From: Chiloscyllium plagiosum
Taxonomy: Eukaryota
Direction: 5' to 3'
NCBI RefSeq assembly: GCF_004010195.1
Contig: NC_057735.1
Location: 52,216,018 to 52,280,017, forward strand
Length of the DNA: 64,000 nt
Part shown: piece by piece, positions 526-55,536 of the stretch
Numbering within the stretch: position 1 is the first letter of the stretch
Layout: each line of letters begins with the position of its first letter
The notes under the pieces: generated by a model
Seen by the model: only the letters and a program-made list of their open reading frames with translations
Told to the model about the DNA's origin: nothing
Database searches by the model: none
Program-made: the position numbers and the translations under genes

Positions 526-597
526 TCAATGACGCAATTACAGAATTCATAAAACATATTCAGCTGCTTGACTTGTGAAAGGTTTGATTTTTCTCAC

Positions 598-1050
598 CAT
601 CACCAAAATGATGGCAGCCCTGTAGAAAATACTGAGGAAGAACAGAGTGATGAATGTGGAAGCAATTGCCCAGATGTTGCCATTATCATCGTCAAAATTT
701 CAATTCAAGTGGGCGGCACGGTGGCACAGTGGTTAGCACTGCTGCCTCGCAGCGCCAGAGACCCGGGTTCAATTCCCGCCTCAGGCGACTGACTGTGTGG
801 AGTTTGCACGTTCTCCCCGTGTCTGCGTGGGTTTCCTCCAGGTGCTCCGGTTTCCTCCCACAGTCACAAAGATGTTCAGGTTAGGTAAATTGGGCCATGC
901 TAAATTGCCCGTAGTGTTACATAAGGGGTAAATGTAGGGGTATGGGTGGCTTGCGCTTTGGCGGGGCGGGGCGGTGTGGACTTGTTGGGCCGAAGGGCCT
1001 GTTTCCACACTGAAAAGTAATCTAATCTAATCAAGTGCGATGTATTGAAT
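598..1050 (-). pseudogene. IgM transmembrane exon TM1, split by a SINE
   Basis: TTGTAG|DSIHRT [SINE 711-1030] *IE (shift) DDDNGNIWAIASTFITLFFLSIFYRAAIILVM|GTGAGA; CART-like TM motif. Confidence 0.88.
711..1030 (+). mobile_element. HE1-type tRNA-derived V-SINE
   Basis: A/B-box head GGCACGGTGGCACAGTGG...GGTTCAATTCC, V-domain, (TAATC)n tail; TSD TCAAGT(G) at 705 and 1031. Confidence 0.92.
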
Positions 1051-1096: not shown

Positions 1097-1333
1097 CGTC
1101 ATGGATAACAAGCTGTACATGCAGAAGGTGGTGTTGTCGCTCTCCACCATCACCTCAGTATTCTTGCAACTGCAATTAACTGGGATTAATCGGTTTGTCA
1201 ATTTTTGTCCACATGACAAAGATCTCTTAGGGGGAGAAACCTCTCACTAAACACATGAGGGAGAGAAACCGCTGAGCGGAGAATTTTGTTGGTGGCATGA
1301 GGACAGGTACTGATGGATCCAGCGGATTTATCG
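1097..1333 (-). pseudogene. IgM CH4 exon, 5' half only, with stops and a frameshift
   Basis: PSVPVLMPP...SAQRFLSLMCLVRGFSP*EIFVMWT...(shift) KNTEVMVESDNTTFCMYSLLS, then homology stops. Confidence 0.88.
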
Positions 1334-5477: not shown

Positions 5478-5788
5478 CTTTCTCCTTGTGGATGGAGTGT
5501 CTCAAAGGAGTCGATATAAATACTGATGGTTCACCACACATTCAAAATTAACACCACTCAGCCAGGTTTCAGTAGAAATGTTTAATTTGCTGATCACGCT
5601 GTCGGGATTCTCTCCAGGCTGGTCATGAATCTCCAGTTTCAGAGCCTTCTTTTCTTGTATCCAGGTGACATTGACTCCAAAAGGAAGATTGCACACAACG
5701 CAGGTTAACGTCACCATTGCCTCCAGTAAGACCTGTTGTATTGGCGGTTGGAGGATTTTAACTGTGCAATCATGGCACTCGCTATATC
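5478..5788 (-). pseudogene. IgM CH3 exon with frameshift
   Basis: [22 protein letters not shown]...[10 protein letters not shown], then a 2-nt insertion near 5514 shifts [12 protein letters not shown]|GTGAGC. Confidence 0.9.
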
Positions 5789-6658: not shown

Positions 6659-6959
6659 CAGAATTTATTCTCCTGACTTTGAATGCTCTCTCCATGAGTG
6701 ACCTGGCAGGTATAGACTGCGTTGTTGGACCATTCACCATAACCGACTGTCAGCCGACTCGTCACCGAGAAGTTGTCGTTCGCCTCACACACAGGAGACG
6801 TGAAGAAGCCAGAATCCATGGACTGGCCATTTTTTAACCAACTTATGGAGATTGACTTCGGATGGAAATTGATGATGGAACAGAGGACGTTTGCAAATTT
6901 GGTGCTTGCAATTTCTTCACTGGTACTCACAGTTAGGTGAAGATTAGGATGGAGAATAC
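6659..6959 (-). pseudogene. IgM CH2 exon
   Basis: [16 protein letters not shown]...[22 protein letters not shown]...FSVTSRL...YTCQVTH. The 3' donor position is uncertain; the candidate GTGGGA is out of phase. Confidence 0.87.
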
Positions 6960-10235: not shown

Positions 10236-10534
10236 ATAGCATTCTGTGCTCTGCTAGGACCCGCTGTGTTGAACCTCACAGTAGATTTTGTTACAATCTA
10301 TCTCTGACTCAGGCAGGGTAAACTGGCTGCTCAAGGTGTAAGTTCCCTTCTGGTTTCTCACTGATGGGTATGTCTTCAATCCAGCCGTGATTGGTTGCCC
10401 ATGTTTCTTCCAGGTCACATTGGTGACGTCAGGGAAATAGTCCATCGTCAAACAACCAAAGACCGCCGAACCGTTGGTGTTGTGTTTCTGACAGGAGGAG
10501 ACTAGGCCATAAAGTGTGGGGGTAGACGGCGTCT
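10236..10534 (-). pseudogene. IgM CH1 exon with nonsense codon
   Basis: [15 protein letters not shown]...[19 protein letters not shown]...YTLSSQ...YCEVQHSGS*; TAG at 10254-10256; flanked by AG and GTAAG. Confidence 0.9.
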
Positions 10535-12890: not shown

Positions 12891-13118
12891 CCATTCAGTG
12901 GTTTCATGGTTTTCAACCAATATTGTACCCTGTTCACATTTTCCCCAATACCCATTTTTTAAAGGTTGAGGGAAACATCTCCTTCTTGAACGGATTTAAT
13001 ATTTTGACTGCAATCACTCTCTGTGAGAGAGAAATCCAAACAATGAACCGTAAACAGAATGGTTCAATTTTAACAGGTGTTGGAAAAGAGCAGCAAGATT
13101 CATGATGATCTCATGAAT

Positions 13119-13824
13119 CTCATTTACCTTCCCTTGCAACCGCAGGAGGTGCAACACTTGCGCCCACACACCTTCCCTTGCAACCGCAGGAGGTGCAACA
13201 CTTGCGACCACACCTCCCCCCTCACTTCTCTCCAAGGCCCCAAAGGAAACTTCCACATCCGCCACAGATTCACCTGCACCTCCACCCACATCATCTACTG
13301 CATCCGCTGCAGCCGGTGTGGCCTCCTCTATATTGGGGAGACACGCCGCCTACTTGCGGAGCGATTCAGAGAGCACCCCTGGGCCACCCGGACGAACCAA
13401 CCCAACCAACCTGTGGCACAGCATTTCAACCCCCCCTCCCACTCCACCGAGGATATGCAGGCCATTCGACTCATCCACCGCCAAACCACAACAACCCGAC
13501 GGTCGGAGGAGGAGCATCTTATCTTCCGACTGGGAACCCTCCAACCACAGGGGATGAACTTGGACTTCACCAGTTTCTTCATCCCCCCTCCCCCCACCTT
13601 GTCTCAGCCGAATCCCTCCAGCCCAGCACCGCCTTCCTGACCTGCAGTCTTCTTGCACTCCCTCGCCACTGACCCTCCGACAGTGCGACACTCCCTGAAG
13701 AAGGGCCTGTGCCCGAAACGTCGAATCTCCTGTTCCCTGGATGCTGCCTGACCTGCTGTGCTGTTCCAGCAATAAAGTTTCAACTTTGATCTCCAGCATC
13801 TGCAGACCTCAGTTTCTCCTCGAA
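13119..13824 (+). mobile_element. Penelope-like element 3' part with GIY-YIG endonuclease
   Basis: CNRRRCNTC...HIIYCIRCSRCGLLYIGETRRLLAERFREH; 12-bp TSD GATCTCATGAAT (13107 and 13825); 37-bp duplication at the 5' end. Confidence 0.9.
13690..13728 (+). ncRNA. Minimal hammerhead ribozyme motif in a Penelope terminal repeat
   Basis: CTGAAGA-AGGGC-CTGT-GCCC-GAAAC-GTC matches the CUGANGA / stem II / GAAA / GUC core. Confidence 0.75.
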
Positions 13825-16242: not shown

Positions 16243-16290
16243 CTGCAGTTCCCGTCACCATGGTCCCTTGGCCCCAGCAAGGAAGGTAGT
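16243..16290 (-). CDS. JH segment
   Basis: YLPCWGQGTMVTGTA (WGxG motif); donor reads G|GCAAGA rather than GT. Confidence 0.9.
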
Positions 16291-16329
16291 CACAGTGTTA
16301 CATTCTCTGAAGTGGTTCACACAATAACG
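16291..16329 (+). promoter_or_regulatory. JH recombination signal sequence, 23-bp spacer
   Basis: CACAGTG (16291-16297) + 23 nt + ACAATAACG, directly abutting JH. Confidence 0.92.
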
Positions 16330-16658
16330 GGCTCGACAAATAAAAAAAATCTACCATTATTTTAAATATTTCTTACCACAAGCAAAATAAATTCACGATA
16401 AATCTTCATCACATTACGATTGTGCTAGTGAATACTGATCACTCTTGATAAATGATATTCACTAGCACAGTCTTGATAAATGATTATAATGATTTATACT
16501 TCACAGAGTAACACGAGCTGGACCTCAAAATCACCAACTGGTGCATCAATAATTTACAAATTAAACTGTGATATTTACATCATATCCCACAGAAGAAATG
16601 CAAGTTAAGAGGTTTGGAGAAGTAAACATTGACTGGTTTCAACAGCAAGGGCTGAACG

Positions 16659-16686
16659 GGCTATTATATTGATCATAATTGCAGTG
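16659..16686 (-). promoter_or_regulatory. D 3' recombination signal sequence, 12-bp spacer (degenerate)
   Basis: CACTGCA + ATTATGATCAAT (12 nt) + ATAATAGCC. Confidence 0.75.
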
Positions 16687-16706
16687 ACACTCCAGTCACA
16701 CGTACG
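16687..16706 (-). other. VH-D junction plus D segment, pre-joined to VH
   Basis: CGTACGTGTGACTGGAGTGT sits between the end of VH and a 12-RSS; the frame reads [10 protein letters not shown]. Confidence 0.8.
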
Positions 16707-17010
16707 TCTCTTGCACAGTAATAGATGGCGGTGTCTTCGATCTTCAGGGTCTTCATGTTCAACGCGAAGATATTTTTCGAAGTGTTGTTGGACGCAGTAA
16801 ATCGATCCTTAATCGCTGGGGCATAGTCATTGCTGGATGAACTGTAGTAGTGAAGCAGCCACTCCAGGCTCTGTCTGGGAACCTGTCTGAGCAAGTACAT
16901 ATAGCAGTTACCAAGATCAATACCACTAGTTTCACAGGTCAGTTTCTGAGTGCCTCCGGGGCGGCCGCTCTCTGCCTCTGGTTGAGTCAAAATAACCTCC
17001 GACTGGATAC
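16707..17010 (-). CDS. IgM VH exon (open frame, conserved FR2 Trp replaced by Leu)
   Basis: [29 protein letters not shown]...YMYLLRQVP...[12 protein letters not shown]...[14 protein letters not shown]. Both Cys are present, WVRQ reads LLRQ, and no RSS follows TGTGCAAGAGA. Confidence 0.93.
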
Positions 17011-17118
17011 CTTTAAAAAGAAAACAAAATGCTGATGAAATGACACCTGAGTCTTTTACATTCCTGGGGTAGACGAACATTGACTCAGTGACAAAGAGAG
17101 ATGAACAAAAACACTCAC

Positions 17119-17167
17119 ATGAAAAGAAAGTCACTAACAAACTGAGAAACATTGTTGACATAATCAT
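17119..17167 (-). CDS. IgM VH leader exon
   Basis: [16 protein letters not shown] followed by a phase-1 GTGAGT donor; 108-bp intron (17011-17118) ends in TTTTTAAAG. Confidence 0.9.
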
Positions 17168-17253: not shown

Positions 17254-17260
17254 ATTTATA
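17254..17260 (-). promoter_or_regulatory. Candidate VH TATA box
   Basis: TATAAAT about 87 bp upstream of the leader ATG, with an E-box at 17292-17297. No ATGCAAAT octamer seen nearby. Confidence 0.45.
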
Positions 17261-18902
17261 TGGCCATCAGAAGGGGCAGGCTTACATGTTCCACCTGTTG
17301 GTTTCCTGGTATCACCTTGCACAGCCCTAAACGATGGGCTCATATATTTATACGAGATATTTTCGTAAACATGGATGTACACACATCTTGGGAATAGCTT
17401 GTTTGGAAGTGTTTTTTAATGGTGAAAGTGAAATTGAAAAGTTTGAGGTCTGTTTCAGATGATAGTTTAAATGTTAGCTCTCTTTATTTCAACATTCATT
17501 CACAAGCAGATAAAACTAAAATCAAAGATATTATTATCCAAGAAAATAACTAACTTTTCTTCTGGACTCTCCAAGTCTCCGTCACATGTAACTCATAAGG
17601 GACGTGTCTAAATTCAATTAAGGCAAGTGAATACAGAGAGTGTCCAAAGTGATTATGTTTAGAATATTCAATTAGAAATTAACTCCCTTTAATTCTACAT
17701 TCAACCACAAGCAGATAGAGATAAAAAGGAGTGCAATTAATTTATCAGACAATAAAATTACTGACTTTATGTTCGCTAACATTCAAGATTTCTCTCACAT
17801 TACAAAATAACATATAATTTCTAATGGGCGTTTCTAGATTCAATCTTGGCAGCCCAATATGAAGATATCTAAAGTGATTGTGTTCATAATGTGGGTGCAT
17901 TAAACAGTTTGGACCGGGAGATTAGAAGAAATTCTTCACATTGCAGAATATCTGTCTTTGTATCTTTTTCAACCCTAAGATTTGAAAATGCATAGTGAAG
18001 GAAAACTGTGTGCCTGATCAATAAAAAGTGAATTGACAGTGATACATAACACTCAATAAACTTGTGAAAGAGAATCTAATGAACTGAAGCAGGCCGGTTG
18101 ATAAGTTAAAAAAAACACCAACATCCAAATCTTTGGAAGCAATTGTGTGGATATATCAGGAGTGTCTGGCAACTTACGGAGTATTAAAATAATAAGTTCT
18201 GTAGATGTAGGTCATAAACTGCACATTTCTCTACTCTTTGGTGGCTATGACAATGTTTGTTAATTAATTGAAAGCAGCAAAAAATAACCATTACATTACA
18301 CCAGTATAAAGGTCCCACTCAATTGTTATGAGATGCATTAATCAGAGAATGGTGCAACAAGTTATGCAAGTTCAATTCAAGTTTGTTAATTTACTTTCAG
18401 ATGATTACAAATGTTACTGCAATGTGGGAGTTTGAATCCATTAACTTTATATTCAGGAAGGATAATGAATAAACACGCTTAACTAACTAGAATGACCTTT
18501 AGGTGAAAGTAACAGAAATTTCTGGCCTGCAATCAATTTCCTGTTTTCTGATTGTCACACAGTGAACACTGTATTCAGCGACCTTCCCAGTTAAAGAAGA
18601 AATGCCAAGCGAAATGTGTCCATTGTGGGTAAATGGGAAAAATATAGTTTGCTTGCTTAGATTTTATTTAATGGGGTTCATGCTCCCTTTTAATCTGCCA
18701 GATACAATAGTTGGCAACAATTAAGCTGACTGCAGAAATGGTCCTCGAGTTCTCAATTTCATTTACCGGAAGCATCTGAAGTTTCTGCAGTAGATCAAAG
18801 ATATTGCCTATGGCAATACTAGTTTGAAAATGTCTGATCTTGGAAGCTAAGCAGTATTTGGGTAGGAAACCACCTGGGAACACCAGGTACTATAGGCTCT
18901 AG

Positions 18903-19240
18903 GGCAGGTACGGTGGACTCAGTGGTTAGCACCGCTGCCTCACAGCGCCAGGGACCCAGTTTCAATTCCGGCTTCGGGAGACTGTCTGTGTGGAGTTTGT
19001 GCATTCTCCCCGCATCTGCGTAGATTTCCTCTGGGGTTCTCTGGTTTCCTCCCATGATCCAGAGATGTGGAGCTTTGGTGAATTGGCCATGCTAAATTGT
19101 CCATAATGTTCAAAGATGTGTAGGTTAGGTACATTAATCAGGGGAACTGTAGGGTAATGGGTCTGGGCGGAATACTCTTCGAAGGGGCGGTGTGGATTTG
19201 ACAGGCCTTTTCTGCACTGTAGGAATTCTAATTCTAATAT
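18903..19240 (+). mobile_element. HE1-type V-SINE (older)
   Basis: Same head and V-domain, more diverged. Confidence 0.85.
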
Positions 19241-39150: not shown

Positions 39151-40217
39151 CCTGTCTTCCCACTCTTTCCTTAGTATGATGTGGAGGTGCCAGTGTTAGA
39201 CTGGGTGGACTAGGTCAGAAGTCACACAACACCAGGTTATAGTCCAACAGGTTCATTTGAAATCACAGCTTTTGGGGTGTTGCCCCTTCGTCAGATGGAG
39301 ATTCCACCTGCCAAAGGAGACCGCTCTGAAAGCTTGTGGTTTCAAACATGGAGCTCAGGACACCATCAGATCAGCCCCCATCTTACTGAATAGTTGACCA
39401 GTTTTGAAGGGCTGACTGACCTCTTGATGATTGTAATTTTATGTACCTATATGGATGAAAAACCAGACCTTGCCCATCTTAGTGTGTCACATACTGGTGG
39501 AAACTGGCCTTTTCCTGAACCTGGGAATTATCCAGATGATTGTCTGGAACGCTCTGTAACTGACATTCTCCATAATATTATTTAACCAACATTCTCCGAA
39601 ACATTCGAGAACTGGCATCCCCAGAAAATTCTAGAGCTGACATTATTTTTGAACGGTCAAACTTCAGTTAATTGAACAAAAAGATCTCAAAGGAAGAGAT
39701 CCCGTACTGTGGAGAAGGAGATACTGTTTCAAGGTTGCCTCAGGCATTTAAGGGGTGAATACATTTCCCCTGCCTTTATATTTCTTCACGACAGAGGATC
39801 GACCACAATTTAGACTAAAAGGCAAACATTTCCAACCTCAGTTTATCTTCAAGGTAGTGGGAGACAAGTTTTCAGGATGTCAATGTTTTCACCCTCTGTT
39901 TTATTGTGCAGAACACAATAAGAAATATTGATGGGTTTGAAGGCCAATAAGGTAAACGGGGAAGTACTGAGAATTAAACTGTATAAATTGTGGAGTAATT
40001 TCTGGATTGGGGTGGCTACTTGCTAGTCACCCCTTCTTGCAAGAACGTTTCAATAAAATTCGGTGCTTCAGAATTTGACTCGGACTGAAATTTATTATAT
40101 TATGAGCTTTTTTTCTCACACAATGAACATAGTGACGATCTTTTTCCAGTGTTACAAAAACCGTGGATTGTCTCCATGTGTCAGACGTTACCGGGGTGGG
40201 GCGGGGGGGGGGGAGGG

Positions 40218-41031
40218 GTGATCGCACTGGCAGATCTACTGGTCATTATGCTCAAGATTGAGGCACATTCCCATTTTTATAAGGAACAGTTTGATTTCCT
40301 GTGGTCCATCCTCATGTGTAATATCCACGCCATCCTGCTTTATACAGCCATTGATTATTCTGTCTGGTTTACCATCATTTTCACCTTAGTTCGATTTATG
40401 GCCATTTGTTGGCAGAAACTGAAAAGTAAATATTGCAGTGGGAAAATAGTGGCTGTGATTCTGGGAAGTGTTTGTGCTGAGCTGTTTAAAGAACATATGA
40501 TATTTTATATTCAGAGCTCAATATGCGCTGAGGAACTACCCTGGTTTTGTGAGGTAACAACTGGTGTTTATTACTCTTGTGTCTGGGTCACAGTCGAGTT
40601 CCTCCACCTCATTCTAATACTGGCTCTGCCATTTCTCCTGACACTGCTGCTCAATGTTTTCACATATTTTAGTAACCATCAGAGCCCATGAGAAACTCTG
40701 GGCTCACACCAATGAGGATGTTCAGTGTGACACAGAAATGCAAAATCGAAAAAAAAACATCATTTTACTATTTGTGATCTCAGCCAATTTCATTGTGCTA
40801 TGGTCAACATTAATGGTGTATTCTATATGGTTCCGTATGTATCATATTGGACATCGGGCTGTGTATTTGCATTGGTTTGTGCGGGAATTGGGTTACATGT
40901 TGCAGCTCCTCAGTTGCTGCACAAACACCGCAATTTATGCCGTGACCCAGACTAAGTTCAGACAGCAGATGAAGAACGTGCTGAAATATTCCTTTACCCA
41001 AATTAATCAATCAATCAAATTCACTCATTAA
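40218..41031 (+). pseudogene. GPR139/GPR142-like class A GPCR, frameshifted and 5'-truncated
   Basis: ADLLVI, CNIHAILLYTA...VRFMAICWQKLKSKYC, LLFVISANFIVLW, LQLLSCCTNTAIY; several frameshifts relative to the 54236-55143 paralogue. Confidence 0.85.
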
Positions 41032-54235: not shown

Positions 54236-55143
54236 CTACTGAGTGAGTTTGTTTGATTTAATAATTTGAGTGAAGGGATATTTCAGCACATTCTTCAGCT
54301 GCTGTCTGAACTTAGTCTGGGTCATAACATAAATTGCAGTGTTTGTGCAGCAACTGAGGAGCTGCAGCATGAAACCCAGTTCCCGCACAAACCAATCAAG
54401 AGACACAGACTTATACCCAATCAAAAACATCCGGTACCATATAGAAAACACCATTAACATTGACCATAACAGGATGAAATTGGCCGAGATGACAAAAAGT
54501 AAAATGATGGATTTTTTTCAATTTTGCATTTCTGTGCAACACTGACCAGCCCCACTGGTGTGAGTCTGGAGTCTCCTGCGGGCTCTGCTCGTCACTAAAA
54601 TGTATTTGACAATGAAAACATTGAGCAGCAGAATCAGGAGAAATGGGAGAACTGGGTTTAGAATATGGTGGAGGAATTCAATTGTGACCCAGAATAGACA
54701 GAATTGAACATCCCTTGTTACATAACAAAACCATGGGTTGTTCTCCAGCCAATACCAACCCGAAAGCATAAAACACCAGAAAATGTTCTTTAAACAGCTC
54801 AGCACAGTCACTGTTCCCAGAACCACAGCAGCCGTTTTCTCACTGCAATATTTACTTTTCAGCTTCTGGCAACAAATGGCCACAAATCGATCAAAGGTGA
54901 AAGTGACGGTGAACCAGACAGAGCAGTCAGTGGCTGCATAAAGCAGGACTGCATGGACATTACACACGGGGATGGACTTCAGGAAATGAAACTGTTCATC
55001 ATAAACAATGGGAATGTGTCTCAATATCAGGTCGAGGATAATGACCAGCAGATCTGCCACTGTCATGGCCACCAGGTAACGTCTGGCACATGGAGATAAT
55101 CCACAATCTTTATAAAGCAGGATGAAGATCGTCACTACGTTAA
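54236..55143 (-). pseudogene. GPR139/GPR142-like class A GPCR main exon with one in-frame stop
   Basis: CCTCACAG acceptor, then VNVVTIFIL, ADLLVII, TFDRFVAICC, PWFC, NTAIY. TGA at 54518-54520 aligns with CGA in the paralogue. The upstream coding exon was not found. Confidence 0.88.
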
Positions 55144-55536
55144 CTGTGAGGAAGGCAAACAAACAATTTAGACATCAGTCTAGAGGCAAAGTTACCAGTT
55201 TGCTTGAGGAGTGAGTCAAATTGTCAAATGAGTCACTGTATTCAGAGGTTTATTGATGGAATTGAAGCTGAATTAATAAAAGTTTTGAATTACTTCCAAA
55301 GTGTGATGTTAATAAAACATCTCCCGCCCAAACACACAGACACACGTCCATAAAAATAGATGATTTGTGGAACAATTTTATGCACTTGATCATTCGATAG
55401 CAAACACTGGTCATATGGCTACAGTTCCTAACATGGAGGGTGAAAGTGCTGCGGTCCTCAAGGATTCCGTCTCAGTTCTTTTCAGACAAATGGAGGTTGG
55501 AAATTACCGTCTTTTAGTTTTAATTTTTATTGGTCT

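Follow-up and report, generated by a model that had tools for sequence, protein, structure and literature searches.

A broken shark IgM heavy-chain cluster with V and D2 fused in inherited DNA, likely by an ancestral germline RAG reaction

How did a heavy-chain V segment come to run directly into a D segment in genomic DNA, with its J left apart, and can a gene in this state still be used? The question is raised by an IgM VH cluster on the minus strand of a 64,000-nucleotide stretch of Chiloscyllium plagiosum DNA (the window, by which we mean the whole stretch analysed), in which VH and D2 are fused and J is separate (Table 1). Clusters joined to different extents (VDD-J, VD-DJ and VDJ) were first described in 1988 and are known from horn shark and little skate, according to the accessible text of PMC2193153, PMC5192425 and PMC4279169. 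Our overall reading, to which we give a probability of about 0.88, is that V and D2 of a shark IgM heavy-chain cluster have been fused in inherited DNA, that the gene is broken here, and that the fusion likely arose through an ancestral germline RAG reaction, probably V-D1-D2.

Table 1. Features of the IgM cluster, with positions in the window, strand and basis of assignment
Feature	Position	Strand	Basis
TATA-like TATAAAT, upstream of leader	17254..17260	-	sequence
Leader exon, ATG at 17167, GT donor at 17118	17119..17167	-	sequence; P0001 comparison
IgM VH exon, open frame, untrimmed germline V end	16706..17010	-	Pfam V-set E 3.5e-13; paralogue comparison
9-nt insert: GT (P-like palindrome of V end) + AC + GTGTG	16697..16705	-	sequence; comparison with organisms B and C
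D2 3' 10 nt; 5' 4-5 nt and 5' 12-RSS gone	16687..16696	-	paralogue comparison
D2 3' 12-RSS CACTGCA-12-ATAATAGCC	16659..16686	-	homology to paralogue D2 signals
D2-J intersegmental DNA, 329 nt, homologous to unjoined clusters	16330..16658	-	paralogue comparison
JH 23-RSS CACAGTG-23-ACAATAACG	16291..16329	+	generic RSS scan
JH, reads YLPCWGQGTMVTGTA	16243..16290	-	sequence; J comparison
CH1: TAG at 10256-10254 and 1-nt loss near 3' end	10236..10534	-	paralogue alignment; Pfam C1-set
CH2: open across domain; 3' boundary not fixed	6674..6959	-	paralogue alignment; Pfam C1-set
CH3: 2 extra bases near 5520, frameshift	5478..5788	-	paralogue alignment; Pfam C1-set
CH4 5' part: TAA at 1229-1227 and 7-nt insertion	1098..1333	-	paralogue alignment
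TM1 remnant: Trp to TGA and 1-nt loss	596..711	-	paralogue alignment

The layout is that of an elasmobranch IgM cluster: the window retains V (82-85% identical to the V of open, unjoined paralogues), the end of D2 and J, followed by CH1 to CH4 and TM1 in order and alignable to a paralogue, and P0002, a product with four domains and a transmembrane segment, matches the same scheme. We take the isotype to be IgM from this architecture and from a general likeness to IgM; no match carried the name, and homologue searches in which 12 and 19 candidates were scored returned no protein named shark IgM. The leader differs by one residue from that of P0001, given by its source as a hypothetical protein of Chiloscyllium punctatum, and TATAAAT upstream of it may act as a promoter element. 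Among the matches listed, this cluster is the only IgM match on its contig, about 1 Mb from the contig end, unlike most of the placed IgM clusters of the genome, which sit on C8, and no second Ig cluster was seen in the window beyond it. It is a copy set apart from the main IgM group and a clear pseudogene. The rest of the window holds a pair of rhodopsin-family 7TM receptor-like sequences, both divided between two frames (40089-41031 on the plus strand and 54236-55174 on the minus strand), a GIY-YIG-like fragment at 13074-13640 (Pfam E 9e-5) that is probably from a Penelope-type retroelement, and many LINE-like fragments. The stretch 18830-19000 presumably combines a decayed 3' half of a 5S rRNA with a SINE head, and an Rfam search of the window, this stretch included, gave no match at the gathering score.

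The expected form of the V end can be read from the other IgM loci of the same genome, where a search gave at least 58 matches (40 of 87 candidates scored) and 30 loci were fetched. Open paralogues contain one V, two D and one J, with recombination signal sequences (RSSs) in the order 23 / 12-22 / 12-12 / 23; D1 is one sequence in 14 of 15 open clusters and D2 measures 14-15 nt. At 21 of the 30 fetched loci a 3-nt V end (GAC in 11, TAC in 6, GAA in 2, GGC and TAG in 1 each) is followed by the V 23-RSS CACAGCG-23-TCAAAAACA. The window VH, which ends in TGTGCAAGAGAC on the minus strand, has no such signal 3' of it, just as a sequence-only reading of this DNA had observed, and alignment to unrearranged paralogues, the check proposed in that reading, reveals that the junction bases are not an extension of V, the true V end and its 23-RSS both being seen there. 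Because these 21 loci show a 3-nt V end, the C at 16706, counted earlier as the first base of the junction, is the last base of V; the junction and D2 end described at that stage are present, but span 19 rather than 20 nt, made up of a 9-nt insert and 10 nt of D2. From the V end to the D2 heptamer there are 22 nt at this locus vs 797-852 nt in most open clusters (outliers 643 and 1135), and what has been lost is the V 23-RSS with about 800-830 nt down to D2. With the V RSS and V-D spacer gone and the D 3' 12-RSS and J 23-RSS kept, the locus has the make-up of a partially germline-joined IgH cluster.

A joint of this kind could enter a genome sequence from a lymphocyte carrying a somatic VDD-J intermediate, which the accessible portion of PMC2435157 describes as frequent in nurse shark thymus, or through chimeric assembly, and the assembly has 101,977 contigs. 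Part of the window stretch was found in 20 of 24 listed runs (7 studies, 3 organisms), and the junction was compared in the contigs of four of these (X1, X5, X9 and X18), whose tissues are not on record. One contig from organism B (X9) covers 16437-16766 with 18 substitutions and 0 gaps, and one from organism C (X18), covering 16641-17075, differs by 34 substitutions and by 5 gap letters, which fall in V and leave the junction untouched; on either side of the junction each contig extends for over 31 letters, 31 letters being our rule for bridging. The same-species contigs from X1 (0 differences in 586) and X5 (1 difference in 582) reach 30 and 26 letters into V, below the bridging rule; X1 may be the assembly's own source, and both runs are without cover at 17338-17450, a gap that carries no meaning. 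Over the V-to-J stretch, identity to the window is no higher than 72-75% in the three further VDD-J loci compared, so the B and C contigs are orthologues of this locus. P0001 is identical at 89/101 positions over V, its predicted exons run from CARD into peptides encoded by the D2-J spacer of the window and over the J RSS, and as an orthologue it would imply an identical V-D layout. Two other species, and runs of this species from two studies, show the junction at the same position and length, and decay reaches C exons 6-15 kb away, all of which leaves a somatic or chimeric origin scarcely credible. A joint made in a lymphocyte could not turn up again in three species, and the join must therefore be older than their divergence; judged from the sequences compared, the V-D join is real, inherited and old, not somatic, and the idea of a fixed germline product is upheld by the gap-free junction in the two other species. 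Molecular clocks in sharks are slow (uncalibrated here), and this together with the 3-8% divergence would make the join probably many millions of years old.

Coding-joint marks are present where V meets D2. The V end is full, the GT that follows is the palindrome of the last two V bases (chance 1 in 16), D2 is trimmed by 4-5 nt, and the last 10 nt of the joint match the 3' end of the seven D2 variants seen at 7-8/10 positions. GT is the P pair to be expected, because 17 of the 21 open V ends finish in AC. The full V end, the 2-nt palindrome, the apparently non-templated bases and the trimmed D2 thus look like a RAG coding joint, which supports the RAG origin proposed from the sequence at the outset. 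RAG reactions leave coding joints with marks of this sort. The same marks were applied to shark light chains by Lee et al., in the accessible part of PMC2193156. Searching the whole genome for a V end followed within 8-36 nt by a D2 RSS gave 5 matches and the reversed control gave 0, so the pattern is not due to chance. An ordinary deletion, made without RAG, might also have taken the DNA between V and D2, and deletions are known in this locus (CH4 to TM1), but its left break would lie exactly at the V coding end and its right break inside a D2 of 14-15 nt with extra bases between them, and all four different VDD-J junctions of the genome break at RSS borders, so we consider this very improbable. 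As a separate observation, the P/N insert forms GTACGT, a donor-like site directly after V (16705-16700), at which the gene model P0001 appears to splice into the D2-J spacer, probably as a prediction artefact; splicing from this GT directly into CH1 was rejected, as it would lead from phase 0 into a phase 1 exon.

Whether one or two joins lie behind the RAG-like joint depends upon the origin of the bases after GT. In the same germline event V may have been joined straight to D2, with D1 skipped and all seven bases after GT non-templated (VD2-J); a V 23-RSS and a D2 5' 12-RSS are permitted partners under the 12/23 rule, and the window insert has only 3 nt in common with D1, a match with a chance of about 0.55. 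However, the GTGTG of the window reads GTGGG in organisms B and C (base G at 16698, among the differences listed, with 58 rows of the comparison outside them), and with this base, present in two of the three species, the D1 match rises to 5 nt, for which the chance is about 0.025 for a random 7-mer. Each of the three other distinct VDD-J junctions of the genome also contains 5-7 nt of D1. GTGGG in B and C is therefore likely a D1 remnant, and the comparison would favour, by about two to one, a V-D1-D2 joint in which only two bases are non-templated, the direct V-D2 join being a possible but less likely account. The VD-J configuration first described is right in that V and D are fused with J separate, but is probably VD1D2-J, built by two joins rather than by a single V-D join.

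On this two-join reading, RAG would have cut at the V heptamer in the germ line of an ancestor, the hairpin would have been opened 2 nt off its tip to give GT, and two non-templated bases would have been added after it. D1, cut back to a core of 5 nt, would then have been joined to a D2 that had itself lost bases at its 5' end, and the joined allele would have become fixed before the species split. The remaining 12/23 pair, D2 to J, would not have been used in the germ line, with decay of the copy following later.

Joining is widespread among the IgM loci of this genome, with 13 of the 30 fetched loci, the present one included, joined or part-joined and some of the other 17 cut short. Of the 13, five are VDD-J and show four junctions between them, three are V-DDJ and two VDDJ; VD-D-J and V-D-DJ occur once each, and in the last V is fused to an inverted D2J piece. 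Loci with a junction in common are 96-97% identical, which fits either alleles or copies made once the join was in place. The tree of upstream-plus-V sequences took in 28 (two loci with too little sequence were left out), and in it the window V sides with four open clusters (99/97), away from the other VDD-J loci. The differing junctions and the V grouping point to repeated, RSS-precise events among the VDD-J loci, and the window locus would be an independent joining event relative to the rest. The V-D-DJ and VD-D-J forms, the three V-DDJ copies, whose junctions are near-identical, and the two VDDJ forms are found at loci L014, L015, L016, L018, L020, L022 and L025, and the V frame of L020 is open. 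At L021 (G000:C8:41677133 onward), a V coding end without RSS is fused to an inverted piece that begins about 100 nt inside the J-C intron and runs back through a joined D2J to D1; at the intron break a heptamer was not seen in paralogues, and the cause may be misassembly or a germline RAG reaction that misfired and inverted the piece. At L006 a stretch resembling a V 3' end stands before the D2 5' signal in place of the usual spacer, reflecting either a local duplication or an assembly error.

What survives downstream of the joint bears on whether the window copy could still rearrange. As the sequence-only reading had it, the D2 12-RSS faces a J 23-RSS about 330 bp away, the nonamers being 329 nt apart. 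The D2 12-RSS was missed by a generic consensus RSS scan of the window because it departs from the textbook RSS at 3+3 positions, and it was identified solely by paralogue homology. Among the 16 D2 3' RSSs found (the window locus included) the heptamer is CACTGCA in 14 and the nonamer is ACAAAAACC in 12, and the window nonamer ATAATAGCC is altered at positions 2, 5 and 7. The J donor is GC (16242-16241) in the window and GT in all 18 other J segments compared.

The claim that the gene needs only D-to-J joining fails when taken as a statement of function. The conserved Trp41 of VH has become Leu (TTG, 16894-16892) in this species, an extra Cys lies in CDR1, and a D-to-J join would be useless here because of the Trp41 change, the three nonamer changes, the GC donor and the lesions in CH1, CH3, CH4 and TM1. 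CH4 homology to paralogues stops at 1098, and its 3' half gave no paralogue match of 100 nt or more. CH4 and TM1 are 387 nt apart, in repeat-like sequence, vs about 2,970 nt in the paralogue, such that roughly 3 kb of paralogue, the expected site of the secretory tail, is replaced by these 387 nt. The window copy is damaged in the V framework, the RSS, a splice site and the C exons, all of which would be intact in a functional one-step IgM gene, and it would give no antibody even after D2-J joining. Contigs of run X5 hold six V-to-J joints, all with other junctions; the window D2-J joint is absent from them, which is a weak negative against use, as contigs drop rare forms. None of the RNA runs is listed as containing the window stretch, which has no bearing either way on expression. 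We also considered dN/dS as a gauge of pseudogene age and dropped it: across 68 codons there are 11 replacement and no more than 4 silent changes, giving a pN/pS of about 0.74 or more, and with four pairs of open paralogues at 0.38-1.01 the measure does not discriminate.

Loss of function may be partly recent, given that the P0001 V keeps Trp41. One could suppose that the cluster is still a working one-step gene (D2-to-J) in a sister species and died only in the present lineage, for P0001 and the B contigs retain both Trp41 and Ser at the site of the extra Cys, and at nonamer positions 2 and 5 organism B agrees with the consensus. Nevertheless, the V of the C contig has suffered frameshifting losses of 4 nt and 1 nt, the P0001 V departs from the paralogue majority at five positions, some in the framework, and joined H gene expression went undetected in horn shark in the accessible text of PMC2193156; we therefore regard continued function in a sister species as unlikely. 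A bolder statement, that the locus is a fossil to which a date could be put, left by V(D)J recombination in the germ line, with its hairpin opening and TdT-like addition preserved from before the split of the three sharks, and with a one-step D2-to-J gene still competent in the sister species that keeps Trp41, also strikes us as improbable. Our preferred reading remains an inherited fusion in a gene that is broken here.

Comparison with known systems relies on the accessible parts of the papers cited. The joined IgM clusters of horn shark and little skate resemble the window locus in cluster organisation, germline V-D fusion, a D 12-RSS facing a J 23-RSS and the presence of open clusters alongside; unlike them, the window joint has been traced in three species and belongs to a clear pseudogene apart from the main IgM group. 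Nurse shark NS4 light-chain genes (Lee et al. 2000, PMC2193156) likewise derive from independent germline joins of split genes, with possible P nucleotides and the RSSs cleanly gone, whereas the window locus is a heavy chain, only partly joined and broken, and two NS4 genes are expressed in pups. The window joint also has non-templated-looking bases, and N-like stretches are described in PMC2193156 as the main mark of somatic as opposed to NS4 germline joints. Nurse shark IgM1gj (PMC4279169, PMC5192425) is a germline-rearranged IgM-type cluster too, but its VDJ join is complete, it has no CH2 and neonates express it; the window locus differs on the first two counts, its J being unjoined and CH2 present, and it cannot encode a heavy chain. 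The somatic VDD-J of nurse shark lymphocytes (Malecek et al. 2008, PMC2435157) has the identical topology, and V-D-D can precede D-J there, but it is cell-specific and the window joint is common to several species. For the bamboo shark, 37 IgM clusters are reported, and the accessible text of PMC8692893 mentions pre-joining for IgNAR D segments only. Our search of the accessible literature found no description of this locus or of a joint shared between species.

Half-joined shark IgM clusters have long been known, and the only addition made here, a small one, is that one joint has been traced across species. A joint common to three species allows one germline RAG event to be placed on the species tree, and 13 joined or part-joined loci among 30 fetched clusters are enough to estimate the frequency of germline rearrangement. 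If the orthologue in a sister species were found to complete D2-to-J joining, this would answer a question raised in the accessible text of PMC2193156, namely whether sharks ever make use of their partly joined H genes.
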